From Patescibacteria group bacterium (GTDB taxonomy: Bacteria > Patescibacteriota > Minisyncoccia > 2-02-FULL-40-12): a stretch of 52,759 nt of DNA. Of this stretch, positions 20,881 through 52,275 are shown piece by piece (within the stretch, counting starts at the first letter, position 1; the number at the start of each line of letters is the position of its first letter). The position numbers were made by a program, and so were the translations under genes. The stretch spans positions 1 through 52,759 of the forward strand of contig JBBTXZ010000010.1 in assembly GCA_038062015.1 (NCBI GenBank). The letters are read 5' to 3'. The notes beneath the pieces are model-generated. The model did no database searches and was not told where the DNA came from. It worked only from the letters and a program-made list of their open reading frames with translations.

Positions 20881-20895
20881 TTTACTAAAAACCTA

Positions 20896-20942
20896 TTGGC
20901 ATCGCTTAGCAGTTCGGATACAAAAAGAAAAACAGGCGACTG
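20896..20942 (+). repeat. Relic of LSR 3' end / attP arm (copy 1)
   Basis: TTGGCA...AGTTC.GA.ACA.AAAGAAAAACAGGCGACTG, homologous to 23021-23067 and to 30529-30543. Confidence 0.75.
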
Positions 20943-22753: not shown

Positions 22754-23014
22754 ATGATTGTTGTTTTCAGTGACGATTTCCTCAATTCTACTAAAGAACT
22801 TCCGTCCAAACTAAAAATAAAGTTAAACAAGCTAATTCAAATTTTGAAAGAAAACCCATTTCATCCCTCTTTGCATACAAAACATTTAAGCGGCAAGTTT
22901 TCCGGTCTGCTCTCTTTCAGAATCACTCGTGACTGGCGGGTGATTTTCAGGTTTTTTGAACCCGATGTCGTTCAGCTTCTCGAGGCAGCTGATAGAAAAG
23001 ATATTTATAAATAA
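22754..23014 (+). CDS. RelE/ParE-family toxin
   Basis: NPFHPSLHTK.L.G.....SFRIT.DWRVIF......DRKDIY. Confidence 0.9.
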   Translation: MIVVFSDDFLNSTKELPSKLKIKLNKLIQILKENPFHPSLHTKHLSGKFSGLLSFRITRDWRVIFRFFEPDVVQLLEAADRKDIYK

Positions 23015-23229
23015 ACTCTTTTGGCACCACCCAGTAGTTCAGACACAGAAAGAAAAACAGGCGACTGGCTGCCTGTTTCTCCTGCTTTGTTGCGGGGGAT
23101 GGAAGACTTCAGAACCAGTATAATGCAGTATTCGGATTATTTGAGGTTTGCGTTTGTGAGGGGGTGGTAGATTACGAATTTAAAAGGCAGAAAGTAAAAT
23201 TGAGTTATAAATTAAATTGAGATACCATT

Positions 23230-24402: not shown

Positions 24403-25671
24403 CTATTGAGTCAAAGATTTCTTTTGTAGTAAGTCATTTACTGTAATTGGGACTATTTCTAATTCTCCTTCTTTATCTAATCTTTTAATTTCTTCTATGG
24501 CGTCTCCGGTAAAGCCAAAAGAAATAAAGTAGCCTCTCTTTCTTTTATCTCTACGCATAGCTGTTTCAAAGTTATCTATATCTGGTCTGCCTGCTTTATC
24601 TTTTTGTTTAACTTGAATCGGGTAATAAATATCTATATCGCCAAATAATCCTTTCTCGTCTGATTTAACTCTTTCTTGTTCTATTGGATACAACTTACCA
24701 TCAATTCCATAATCGCCGACTTTAATTCTATTTGGGATACCACCGAGAGCAATAACTGCCCAATTCTGGAATTCAAAGTGCGGCAGTTTCATTAGTTCTT
24801 CTTCTGATTTCGGTAAGTCGCTAAGAATGAAGTCCTTTCCTTCTACAAGCCTAAATCCGTCAGTTAAACGCTGTGCCATAACTCGGCAAGCTGTCGGCGA
24901 TATATCTATGCCAATCCATTTACGGCCAAGTTTTTGAGCGGCAACTAAAGTTGTGCCACAACCACAGAAAGCATCCAAAACAACATCGCCTTCTTTACTG
25001 CTAACTTTTACAATGCGCTCAAGTAGTCTGACTGGCTTTTGAGTAGGATAGCCGAGTCTTTCTTTTTCCGAAGGCATAAGAGGTTGTATATCCCAGACAT
25101 CGTCAGGATGCTTCCCTAAAGGATTTGCTTCGTATTTGTCATAAACTTTATCGCCTCTAAATGCCCGTGCTTTGTATTTCAATCTTTCTAAAGATTCTTT
25201 AGAGTAAGGAGTTCTAACTTCATCAACATTAAAAATCCAACCTTTCCCTCTGGTGTAAAAGAAAATTGAATCGTGTCTTCGGCCAAACCTCTTTTTAGAA
25301 ACACCGCCTCCTCTATACCACCAGATAATTTCATTTTGGAAGTTATTGAAATCAAAAATCTGGTCAAGCATTAGTTTCACATAATGGCTGGCGTGCCAAT
25401 CACAATGGTAATAGAAGCTACCGTTTTTCTTTAAGACACGATAAAGCTCCAAAACTCTTGGACGCATATATCGGATATATGCTTCGGCATCGCCAAATCT
25501 ATCTTCAAAGGCTCTTTTCTCTTGAATATCACCCCAGAATACTTCGTAGTTGCGATTACTATTAAAAGGCGGGTCAATATAGATTAAATCTACAGACTCA
25601 TCAGGAATTTCTTTAAGCATCTGCAGATTGTCTCCGCAGTAAATAATACTGGTTGTAAGTTGTTTTGGCAT
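24403..25671 (-). CDS. N4/N6 DNA methyltransferase (beta class) fused to Mrr-like PD-(D/E)XK endonuclease domain
   Basis: IYIDPPFN, YPTQKP, LDAFCGCGTT; C-terminal GDYGIDG..IQVKQ....GRPDIDNF. Confidence 0.88.
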   Translation of the reverse strand: MPKQLTTSIIYCGDNLQMLKEIPDESVDLIYIDPPFNSNRNYEVFWGDIQEKRAFEDRFGDAEAYIRYMRPRVLELYRVLKKNGSFYYHCDWHASHYVKLMLDQIFDFNNFQNEIIWWYRGGGVSKKRFGRRHDSIFFYTRGKGWIFNVDEVRTPYSKESLERLKYKARAFRGDKVYDKYEANPLGKHPDDVWDIQPLMPSEKERLGYPTQKPVRLLERIVKVSSKEGDVVLDAFCGCGTTLVAAQKLGRKWIGIDISPTACRVMAQRLTDGFRLVEGKDFILSDLPKSEEELMKLPHFEFQNWAVIALGGIPNRIKVGDYGIDGKLYPIEQERVKSDEKGLFGDIDIYYPIQVKQKDKAGRPDIDNFETAMRRDKRKRGYFISFGFTGDAIEEIKRLDKEGELEIVPITVNDLLQKKSLTQ

Positions 25672-25815
25672 ACCTGTAGTGGGTTTTATTTTTGCTGACG
25701 AGGGCTAAAACACAAAGCCCGCCGCCAGCGATGACTTTCGCCACCCATACACCTTTCGGCGCATGACCCACTACAGGTGCTCTGACGACGAGCTTAATAT
25801 CCTGTAGTGGGTTTT
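25672..25815 (-). ncRNA. Structured leader RNA with antisense/target triplet upstream of the methylase
   Basis: 14-bp closing stem 25715-25728/25782-25795, two GAAA-tetraloop hairpins, 13-nt segment complementary to copies at 25672-25684 and 25801-25812. Confidence 0.65.
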
Positions 25816-25975
25816 TATGCCATACCTCGCAGTTAAACCACGAGGGTTAGGCGGCTATTAAATTGTTGTTTTTAAAATACCCTACTTTTGCTAAAAAATA
25901 AAGCATCCGGCGCTTATGATAAATCTTGAAAAACAAGTAAAAATCAAGTAAAATTAAAAGAAAATTACAATTACT

Positions 25976-26695
25976 ATGGATAAATTAGCTAAAAAATACA
26001 AAGAGCTTTTTTATAGATTCTCCAGTCATTCTGATTTTGAAAAAAAAGTTGAAACCGTAAGAAACCGTTTTGGTATAGATGAAGACAATCCCGAGAAGTT
26101 TTTAATAAGAAAACTTAGCTTAAAAGAAGGAGAAGTGTGGCAAGATGCTATTTATGACATCGTTTTTGCAATTATACCGAAGTATATGGAAGCCGAAGGA
26201 GACTTTTTATTTACGGCAACAGAGACATATGTTATCGGCGGCAAAAATAGGGTTGATGATTATCTAAACGGTGATGTATTTTATTCATACGGAATGCAAT
26301 TATTTAAAAATCTGGATGCTAAACATCTATCAAAATTTGGCGATATATACAAAAAAGGATTGTTTATTTATATTTCCCCTTACACATCAAAGAGTGATTT
26401 AATCTTGGCAGTAAATAAAAAATGGCCGGAGATTAAAAATGAGCTTCAAAAGAAAAATATCAATAATAAGAATTTGAAAGGCCTACTTAGGGTTAGAAGT
26501 CATACTAAAAAAGAAAGGGATAAGATGATTTTTGATTTATATAATAAGTCTCGTGAAGAATTGGGTTTGAAAAGGGGAGAATATAAAGAAATTATAGTTT
26601 CTTTGCTTTTAAAAAAACAAGGCATAGATGTCCAGCCAGAAAATGTAAAAATGATTGTCTTAAGACAAAGAAAATTGAGAAAAGGTAACATTTAA
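25976..26695 (+). CDS. Hypothetical protein, basic C-terminus (possible DNA-binding regulator)
   Basis: 239-aa ORF; RD..IF.LY..V..IV.RQRK C-terminus. Confidence 0.7.
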   Translation: MDKLAKKYKELFYRFSSHSDFEKKVETVRNRFGIDEDNPEKFLIRKLSLKEGEVWQDAIYDIVFAIIPKYMEAEGDFLFTATETYVIGGKNRVDDYLNGDVFYSYGMQLFKNLDAKHLSKFGDIYKKGLFIYISPYTSKSDLILAVNKKWPEIKNELQKKNINNKNLKGLLRVRSHTKKERDKMIFDLYNKSREELGLKRGEYKEIIVSLLLKKQGIDVQPENVKMIVLRQRKLRKGNI

Positions 26696-26812
26696 GAAGT
26701 CTATATAAAACTATTGTCGGGATTTTTTTTGTTTCTTTACACTACAGACATAACTGTAGTTTTTTTATTTTAAGTTTAAATTTTTTAAGATACGAACGAC
26801 TAAAAAATTTCA

Positions 26813-28463: not shown

Positions 28464-28837
28464 GTGAAAAATTCTGCCAATTTATTAAGACCGATGGTGA
28501 AAAATGCGAAGCGTGGGCAATGACTAACAATGATTTTTGTTTTAGCCATAATCCAGAAATGGATGAAGCCAAAAAAGAGTCAGTAATCAGAGGAGGGCAA
28601 TCACCTAAAAAGAACTTTAATCCCTTGCCGCCGGTTAAGGTTAAAGATAGTAAAGATGTAGTAAAACTGGTGTCTCAAGTTATAAACGAGGTAAGGCAGG
28701 GAATCATTGATATTAGAGTGGCCAACTGCCTCTTTTACGGCTCTGGGATGCTTATAAAAGCCCTTGAAATTGCTGATTTAGAGGATAGAGTCGGTAAATT
28801 GGAAGAAACTTTAAACAAAAGAGATATTGGGGTATAA
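28460..28837 (+). CDS. Hypothetical protein with CCCH zinc-finger N-terminus
   Basis: CQFIK.DG.KC.A.A.....FCF.H motif followed by RGG. Confidence 0.7.
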   Translation: MSEKFCQFIKTDGEKCEAWAMTNNDFCFSHNPEMDEAKKESVIRGGQSPKKNFNPLPPVKVKDSKDVVKLVSQVINEVRQGIIDIRVANCLFYGSGMLIKALEIADLEDRVGKLEETLNKRDIGV

Positions 28838-28844
28838 TAAAGAT

Positions 28845-28956
28845 GTAGCCCGCAGTTGTAATAATTCCGTGATTTTTTATTAGTTTCTGCCCTATAAGGG
28901 GCGGCTGCCAGAAGCTAATCTTCACGGAAAAGCAACTGGGCTACCAGCCGTCCCTT
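28845..28956 (+). ncRNA. Structured (pseudoknot/switch) 5' leader of the recombinase gene
   Basis: TATAAT at 28833-38; nested stems and 12-bp loop-to-3'-tail complementarity. Confidence 0.65.
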
Positions 28957-28965
28957 TAAGTTTAT

Positions 28966-51564: not shown

Positions 51565-51783
51565 TAAATTAATATGTAAGATGATTAAAATTTAATAGCC
51601 CGCCATTGCTAAAGCTATGGCGAGGCAATGCAATTAAAAGATTGTATGACCGCGATTTCTTCTTTACGGAGGAAATCGCGGTTGTATTTTGGAAAGGTCT
51701 TTAAAAATTCAATAGCCCTCCTTCGCATGAAGCTATGGAGGGCGATGCAGGTTCATCATAGTCAATCAGACGCAGATTTTTTT

Positions 51784-51823
<40 letters not shown>

Positions 51824-51846
51824 GATAAGGCATGCAAGTCGTGCGG

Positions 51847-52275
51847 ACGCAATCGCCAACTTCTAATCTCTAATCTATAATTAGGTCAATGAAAGGAAAT
51901 TTCCGAGAATTTAAAGTTTATAGAGATGCAAAGGATTTAGTAATTAAGGTATTTCAGTTGACACGTAAATTTCCAAAAGAATTTTATTATTTATCTGACC
52001 AAATAAATAGGAGCGCTTTATCAGTTGTTCTTAATATTGCTGAAGGATCAGCAAAAGGAAGCGATAAAGACTTTAATAGATACATAAAAAATTCTCTTGG
52101 GTCGGCAACTGAGTTATCCTCGGCATTAGAGATTACAGAAGACCTAAAATTGATAGATGAAAAAGAATATTCATTACTTGATACACAGATACAAGAAATC
52201 ATTAAACAATTAGGCGGCTTCTCTAAATATCTTTTGAGGCGTTAGCGATTGGTGATTGGAAGTTGGTGGTTGCGT
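51847..52275 (+). mobile_element. Intervening sequence in 16S helix 6 (V1)
   Basis: 29-bp stem 51847-51875/52247-52275 (1 mismatch, G-U pairs) enclosing an ORF. Confidence 0.9.
51889..52245 (+). CDS. Four-helix-bundle intervening-sequence protein (IVP)
   Basis: F....VY..A......FP.E...L.DQI.RSALSV..NIAEG....DF.RY...SLGS..E. Confidence 0.92.
   Translation: MKGNFREFKVYRDAKDLVIKVFQLTRKFPKEFYYLSDQINRSALSVVLNIAEGSAKGSDKDFNRYIKNSLGSATELSSALEITEDLKLIDEKEYSLLDTQIQEIIKQLGGFSKYLLRR

Follow-up and report, generated by a model that had tools for sequence, protein, structure and literature searches.

LOOT RNA, a likely on/off switch for cargo genes of mobile DNA in Patescibacteria

The leader of a DNA methylase gene in a Patescibacteria group bacterium (GenBank assembly GCA_038062015.1, contig JBBTXZ010000010.1) carries a strand that can pair with the bases just before the start codon. 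This raises the question of what kind of RNA the leader encodes and whether its role is tied to restriction-modification (R-M). A preliminary description of the 52,759 nucleotides analysed here (the window) had proposed such a tie, namely an antisense RNA acting as an establishment or timing switch for an R-M gene in place of a C protein. We found that the antisense 13-mer on which this proposal was built, ACCTGTAGTGGGT (25766-25778, minus strand), is 100% complementary to both of its suggested targets, 13 nt just before the ATG (25672-25684) and 12 nt further upstream (25801-25812). The targets belong to a 15-nt perfect direct repeat with copies 128 nt apart. At up to two mismatches the window holds exactly three copies of the 13-mer, all of them exact, with about one chance match expected at that looseness. 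The 14-bp stem rich in G-U pairs was also found, between AAGCUCGUCGUCAG (25782-25795) and CUGGCGGCGGGCUU (25715-25728) with three G-U pairs, as were the two GAAA hairpins (25746-25765 and 25730-25745).

The cmscan search against Rfam that had been suggested as a check identified the RNA. The flagged stretch is part of LOOT (RF03000), a catalogued bacterial RNA family; the match on the minus strand (25853-25730) covers model positions 1-121, the full length, and scores 90.3 bits where the gathering score is 46.4. The hairpins P1, P2, P3 and P4, common to the Rfam model and the window locus, are present in the consensus order, and the start of LOOT at 25853 lies upstream of the limit drawn previously. 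It is the sole LOOT copy in its genome (0.51 Mb, 92.5% complete). A SAM/SAH riboswitch was considered as well and dropped, as no known aptamer matched at E ≤ 10. The 121-position model ends at P4 and is without four further elements of the leader, b', the U-rich run, b2 and a2. From 5' to 3' on the minus strand, the order is P1, A-rich linker, a1, b1, a', P3, P4, b', U-rich run, b2, a2 and the ATG (25671):

25860..25866, minus strand: ACAAUU motif, found immediately 5' of P1 in 55 of 94 loci, whereas a control window has it in 1 of 94
25730..25853, minus strand: LOOT RNA, full-length match to RF03000
25818..25852, minus strand: P1 hairpin with internal loop CCUAAC (25851-25846) / UAUGG (25824-25820)
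25801..25815, minus strand: a1, the 5' strand of P2 plus A-rich linker (a1 proper 25812-25801); the upstream target of the preliminary description and predicted default partner of a'
25782..25795, minus strand: b1, strand in the P2 loop, AAGCUCGUCGUCAG; 5' arm of the 14-bp stem
25766..25778, minus strand: a', the 3' strand of P2, ACCTGTAGTGGGT; antisense 13-mer with a1 or a2 as partner
25746..25765, minus strand: P3 hairpin, 8 bp with a GAAA loop; candidate ligand of the P1 receptor
25730..25745, minus strand: P4 hairpin with a GNRA loop
25715..25728, minus strand: b', CUGGCGGCGGGCUU; complement of b1, outside the Rfam model
25707..25716, minus strand: U-rich run, UUUGUGUUUU, where b' ends; predicted to be the tail of a terminator or the 3' terminus of a short RNA
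25694..25706, minus strand: b2, incomplete repeat of b1; pairs anew with b' in read-through transcripts
25672..25687, minus strand: a2, copy of a1 directly ahead of the start codon

The ACAAUU motif (25860-25866) probably lies at the transcript start. The 171-nt region folds with a z-score of -7.6, and none of 200 shuffles folds as well.

LOOT and the methylase gene sit inside a 7.5-kb serine-recombinase element integrated at tRNA-Met. We call it an integrated element because it has 55-nt repeats, one of them over the tRNA-Met, and a serine recombinase gene (28966-30693). Its relevant features are:

24403..25671, minus strand: methylase-nuclease gene, the cargo behind LOOT; 422-aa N6/N4 DNA methyltransferase with a C-terminal Mrr_cat-like domain
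25976..26695, plus strand: divergent gene of 239 aa, no known family
28966..30693, plus strand: large serine recombinase encoded by the element; its gene extends into tRNA-Met
23049..23103, strand not given: left att-like repeat, 84% identity over 55 nt with 30530-30584
30530..30642, minus strand: right att-like repeat, overlapping the 3' end of tRNA-Met (30642-30571)

In Pfam, the cargo protein matches PF01555 (E 2e-58) and PF04471 (E 7e-5, the latter over the cut-off). The divergent 239-aa gene has no family in Pfam, PADLOC or PHROGs and falls only into unnamed clusters in the Atlas; a possible role as a C protein or another regulator found no backing in these four resources. PADLOC returned no match for the two genes neighbouring the methylase. 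To the left of the element, an extra partial att-like repeat (20888-20942, 23013-23103), displaced by 2.1 kb, suggests tandem integrations at tRNA-Met, and a RelE/ParE-like toxin-antitoxin pair occupies the interval between the left att-like repeats (20888-20942 and 23013-23103).

The antisense strand, a', can thus pair either with a1 or with a2, and b' competes through b1. We refer to the folds with a1:a', b1:b' and a':a2 as A, B and C. For the transcript up to the U-rich run, the multibranch fold has a predicted energy of -65.3 kcal/mol, compared with -70.1 kcal/mol for the fold with the 13-mer on the upstream copy. The multibranch RNA of the preliminary description therefore holds as an alternative fold, which co-varies across the family, but not as the predicted ground state; likewise, its upstream "target" (25801-25812) is complementary to the 13-mer but is really the default P2 partner of that strand, a1. 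At full length, the energies are -88.8 (A), -89.8 (C) and -69.7 kcal/mol (B), and the difference of 1 kcal/mol between A and C is within model error. In equilibrium snapshots of the growing transcript, A stood at 0.99 from about 100 nt onward; once a2 had been synthesised, C took over at about 0.84, and b':b2 paired after read-through. When a1 was held unpaired, b1:b' formed at the U-rich run with 0.96-0.98 here, and the same switch to B was predicted in 89 of 91 loci.

LOOT is common in the phylum: it was found in 29/151 genomes of a class sample, 30/151 of a phylum sample and 39/105 of an order sample, and in 0/14 control genomes. We fetched 97 loci, a part of all search matches, and kept 94 after parsing, leaving out one mis-parsed locus (L176) and two near-duplicates (L165 and L167). 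Fold energies were counted on 91 loci (further omitting L018, L022 and L172), and 5 loci have no called open reading frame (ORF). Column pair counts were dropped in favour of counts at anchored positions, since MAFFT did not keep the variable helices in register. Covariation among homologues, named beforehand as the test on which the antisense reading could fail, was found across these 94 loci.

The clearest case is b1:b'. When each P2 loop is paired with the first 25 nt 3' of the P4 from its locus, the mean is -24.7 kcal/mol, compared with -13.7 kcal/mol for swapped partners (94 loci), and 0/5000 permutations reach the cognate value, a figure that overstates significance because LOOT loci are related to each other. 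In 92/94 loci the cognate partner is better than those of the three nearest-scaffold neighbours, which eases the relatedness concern and does not remove it. Every anchored position of b1:b' has changes on both sides. A U-rich tail (at least 6 of 10 bases) follows in 58/94 loci, against 8/94 thirty bases further on. Because of this co-varying stem and U-rich run, b1:b' represents a family-wide alternative structure outside the Rfam model. It is not a textbook terminator, however; G's interrupt the U-run, and a structured loop of 66 nt lies within the stem. The re-pairing of b' with b2 co-varies too and is locus-specific (0/5000 in within-group permutations, likewise inflated by kinship). A negative control, a':b' pairing, gave no signal in the 94 loci.

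A copy of a1 at the start codon is found in a part of the family. The locus's own a1 9-mer (at least 8/9 nt) recurs within 100 nt downstream in 24/94 loci, compared with 0.73% of 8702 swapped pairs. An ORF was called for 23 of these copies, and 21 of them end between -1 and 7 nt from its start codon; these 21 loci carry 18 different 9-mers. The start-codon arm is optional, since 70/94 loci do without a2. The suggestion that the antisense strand can cover the start codon is thus borne out: a2 is complementary to a', lies directly before the ATG and co-varies across loci; the 99% a':a2 pairing seen across the 21 loci follows from how these loci were chosen. Similarly, the 83 distinct a' 10-mers in 94 loci are equally expected of a plain cis helix. 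In a locus with a methylase 81% identical to that of the window (L007), a1, a' and a2 have changed in concert; a locus with a methylase 46% identical (L004) has LOOT and no a2. A Shine-Dalgarno-like word precedes the start in 0/21 a2 loci as compared to 8/59 others. Comparison across loci thus shows conservation of three mutually exclusive helices: a1:a'; b1:b' with its U-rich run; and, in about a quarter of the loci, a':a2 over the start codon.

As a separate observation, the sequence before the start codon in one locus (L158/L217, genome G308) fits the a1 of another LOOT (L018) and not its own. No LOOT matching this a2 was found in that genome, which suggests that module swapping can leave a2 unmatched.

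P1 has features of its own. It ends in CCUAA[A/C] and [C/U]AUGG, the pattern CCUAAN/NAUGG, a six-plus-five-letter consensus that we take to be that of the 11-nt GAAA-tetraloop receptor. The variable pair co-varies (A.C in 64 loci, C.U in 24, C.C in 5 and G.U in 1; Fisher p 1e-17). The conserved C-G, U.A and A-A steps are present in LOOT P1, with the GAAA loop of P3 at constant spacing: 10 nt separate the end of a' from this loop in 79/94 loci, P3 has 8-9 contiguous pairs in 77/94, and the linker measures 8 nt in 55/94. The loops of P4 vary among GNRA forms. Because our parse required a GAAA loop and an AUGG-like strand, only the covariation and the spacing count as independent. The base steps of the receptor are described in the available parts of bioRxiv 10.1101/2022.12.15.518780 and PMC3494683. 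LOOT P1 resembles it in the conserved core steps and the compensatory outer pair, but the step below the A-A platform is G.U in the known receptor and mostly A.C or C.U in LOOT. Thus, P1 looks like an 11-nt GAAA-tetraloop receptor, with docking to P3 predicted from the spacing only.

From these folds we propose the following course of events. During transcription, a1:a' would form first, hiding b1, permitting read-through and leaving the start codon open (fold A, ON), and contact of the P3 GAAA loop with the P1 receptor would stabilise this state. If a1 were occupied, folding predicts that b1:b' forms at the U-rich run (fold B), where the transcript would end and a short RNA with an exposed a' would be released; in transcripts that read through, the freed a' would cover the start codon (fold C, OFF). 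Occupancy of a1 would therefore turn the leader off twice, by the terminator-like helix and by the covered start codon. The simplest occupant would be a' from another copy of the RNA, as fold B exposes this strand. In the least certain step, the short RNA would build up and bind, in trans, the a1 of new transcripts or a2 directly; a co-fold test gave only -6.8 and -10.0 kcal/mol, gained by opening b1:b'. The outcome would be a negative-feedback loop of the P4 CI/C4 type, with the variable a sequence determining its specificity and with the methylase gene expressed when the element first arrives and damped later. We are highly confident of a leader role with alternative folds, and repression through a2 is probable. 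We lean toward termination at the U-run, as predicted by folding, and put forward the self-targeting switch as a whole, trans trigger included, tentatively.

An entirely cis-acting kinetic switch is possible, with a rather low probability. Here, the transcript would fold into A, be translated for a while and then relax to C, with a fixed fraction taking B and stopping there, so that each mRNA delivers a set dose and no RNA acts in trans. This agrees with the near-equality of A and C and the late synthesis of a2, as well as with the small difference between A and B across loci (mean -1.4 kcal/mol; within 3 kcal/mol in 38/91). It is also in line with the search for remote targets. Copies of a1 were not enriched in the 42 LOOT units of 41 loci with wide flanks, nor by short BLAST, and no target of a' or b' was found within about 10 kb on each side, at recombinase starts (19 starts; 9/28 were dropped for having no N-terminal motif) or at other ORF starts, with a single exception. 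About 2600 nt downstream of the LOOT at L112, an exact 16-nt copy of a1 occupies codons 2-7 of a serine recombinase gene (L214, genome G168); this LOOT has no local a2 and is the sole remote-copy case among the 41 wide loci. On the other hand, the equilibrium winner in the 21 a2 loci is A in 13, C in 7 and B in 1, so that in the 13 a2 would stay idle unless something frees a'. A purely cis-acting switch also leaves unexplained why B is conserved in loci without a2.

Alternatively, though this we consider unlikely, the leader could sense a ligand or protein: fold A with the receptor contact would detect an ion, a metabolite or a protein of the element, and b1:b' with the U-run would serve as the expression platform. 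The conserved geometry of receptor, linker and P3 would fit a sensor, as would the terminator-like alternative helix and the position of LOOT at the head of transcription units. However, the conserved nucleotides are largely explained by the receptor and the tetraloops, and no riboswitch family matches at E ≤ 10. A same-strand ORF can be called within 230 nt in 89/94 loci, and these first genes have no metabolic theme in common: most of their products are unassigned, and the others include membrane-anchored, zinc-ribbon, DUF4352 and nuclease-like proteins; a serine recombinase cluster lies within -8/+6 kb in 26/41 wide loci, and apart from recombinase and methylases no neighbour protein recurs in more than 13/41.

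It is improbable that a2 is a DNA relic of duplication or cargo capture, or that a1, a' and a2 are recombination or inversion sites, the pairing at the start codon having no regulatory role. Such an origin could account for the copy at L007, which takes in upstream linker bases, for the L158 a2 with its foreign a1 match, and for the 70/94 loci that do without a2. It does not explain a fixed position at the start codon shared by 18 different sequences, nor a locus (L141) where a' pairs better with a2 than with a1. GNRA loops and an excess of G-U over A-C in helix cells (176 versus 2, partly an effect of how the helices were picked) also favour an RNA on the LOOT strand. Last, a free-standing small RNA that uses a' against mRNAs elsewhere in the host or in phages, its downstream gene being there by coincidence, is hardly credible: Rfam types LOOT as "Gene; sRNA" and L112 has its a1 copy in the recombinase gene, but the same-strand ORF follows in 89/94 loci, a2 and b2 co-vary in cis and remote targets are not enriched.

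The self-targeting switch could have a further layer, RNA-only autoregulation combined with element recognition in ultra-small bacteria, which we regard as a long shot. The short form would contact new transcripts both through the a'-to-a1 code and through an intermolecular P3-P1 dock, and the two contacts would rebuild the geometry of fold A between two molecules. If this were true, dozens of switches that do not cross-react would time methylases, R-M operons and surface cargo on cell entry.

We then compared LOOT with known systems. The target-antisense-target layout noted in the preliminary description is present, with a1 and a2 flanking a' in the same leader. The P4 CI RNA with seqA and seqC, and IsrK of Gifsy-1, likewise have an antisense strand between an upstream and a downstream target in their own leader, on a mobile element. 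In the available text of PMC4825925, CI pairs with the flanking seqA and seqC, adopts alternative folds and occurs in short and read-through forms. CI silences the replication genes of its element, whereas the LOOT of the window precedes a cargo gene whose transcription runs away from the recombinase operon, and targets for CI-like silencing were not enriched at the 19 recombinase starts, L112 excepted. Premature termination induced by antisense pairing, as in P4 CI, is predicted for LOOT. The Rho RNA-binding domain was not found in the genome (92.5% complete), a result that we do not count as evidence. The P1/P7 C4 antisense RNA, as described in the accessible portion of PMC5320573, resembles LOOT in its several helices, its variable specificity strand and its targets at a translation start. 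The C4-type combination of a variable antisense strand with a co-varying target at the translation start occurs in 21/94 LOOT loci, including that of the window. C4 differs in being about 77 nt long, cut out by RNase P and equipped with antisense elements in loops, while in LOOT a' is hidden in a helix by default and P1 is receptor-like. An RNase P RNA is present in the genome, which makes C4-like processing possible, no more.

Membership in either family was rejected. P4 CI gave no sequence or Rfam match, LOOT being the only family over its gathering threshold and no phage antisense family appearing at E ≤ 10; C4 is absent from the four matches at that cut-off. By analogy, LOOT likely works like CI or C4 and is a member of neither.

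As for R-M, the link made in the preliminary description found no support in the wider sampling. DNA methylases are the first gene in only 7/89 LOOT loci. Behind a2, methylases of three Pfam types are enriched (6/21 against 1/68; Fisher p 5.5e-4, uncorrected for kinship), and two a2 loci stand before type III Mod-like genes. Nor is LOOT bound to this methylase family: among relatives of the methylase in other genomes it precedes 0/20 by Rfam (20 of 80 loci) and 0/80 by a custom nhmmer profile. Because 0/80 of these loci carry LOOT, we conclude that it moves with the element rather than the enzyme family. There is also no separate restriction gene whose expression would be delayed, as methylase and Mrr_cat-like domain are fused in a single gene and the next gene is convergent. 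A timing role for an R-M gene is an extrapolation, and expression that peaks early and is then damped would remain suitable for a methylase. In an R-M context, RNAs that block a translation start are described for EcoRI and Eco29kI, alongside C proteins, in the available part of PMC12707154; there, the nuclease is the target, either of RNAs from reverse promoters inside the restriction gene or of hairpins at its start. In contrast, LOOT carries the antisense strand in its own leader, and the start that it covers is that of a fused methylase and nuclease; LOOT mostly heads non-R-M genes. As the strand matching the methylase start changes in step across relatives, LOOT likely serves cargo genes of mobile DNA as an RNA switch between on and off, and not as a methylase-specific control.

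A literature search, with most subscription journals outside its scope, found no published function for LOOT. In the figure legend of the Rfam 14 paper (PMC7779021), the ZWD-derived LOOT is shown as a metagenomic RNA. The CaCoFold preprint (bioRxiv 10.1101/2020.02.04.933952) lists, in its available part, 28 cross-covariations for the family and no mechanism; LOOT is a table row in the supplement of PMC7657543, and PMC5737381, reportedly the discovery paper, leaves the motif unnamed in its main text. The anatomy of the switch is well supported and apparently unpublished; the supplement of the discovery paper may describe some of its features, such as the receptor or the 3' helix. With its co-varying helices, an orphan family gains a concrete model with an antisense strand, a stop point of transcription and a covered start codon. 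If the model is true, mobile elements in minimal-genome bacteria control cargo genes by RNA alone, LOOT offers a natural set of orthogonal RNA switches, and a cis-encoded, leader-borne route joins the known controls of methylase expression.

Several further observations concern the family and the window. In viral contigs, a strict LOOT pattern gave 0 matches and a looser one 2, of which, judged by eye, one is LOOT-like and one a chance match. Two pairs of loci (L152 and L007; L155 and L172) have the same a sequence within the pair and unrelated cargo genes, which suggests cargo exchange behind a fixed leader. L180 and L191 each have, at a distance of 7-8.6 kb, another LOOT that is degenerate but has an identical a1; it is surrounded by repeated blocks of genes. 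Within the window, a small hairpin followed by a long T run (26738-26770, plus strand) lies upstream of a DUF5659 gene; its 5' arm has 8 nt in common with a1, not above chance, and the hairpin sequence CACTACAG (about 26740) stays below 10/12 matches as an a1-like target. The recombinase gene is preceded by a highly self-complementary leader (28837-28965, plus strand) without an Rfam match, and a similar leader precedes the recombinase of L178. Inverted repeats of 137 nt, 93% complementary (30815-30951 and 32187-32323), adjoin a tRNA-Met and flank a 316-aa ORF, a possible mobile or invertible unit. Finally, the 16S rRNA alignment (51778-52271) has about 413 unaligned bases near the 5' end, possibly an insertion or intron.
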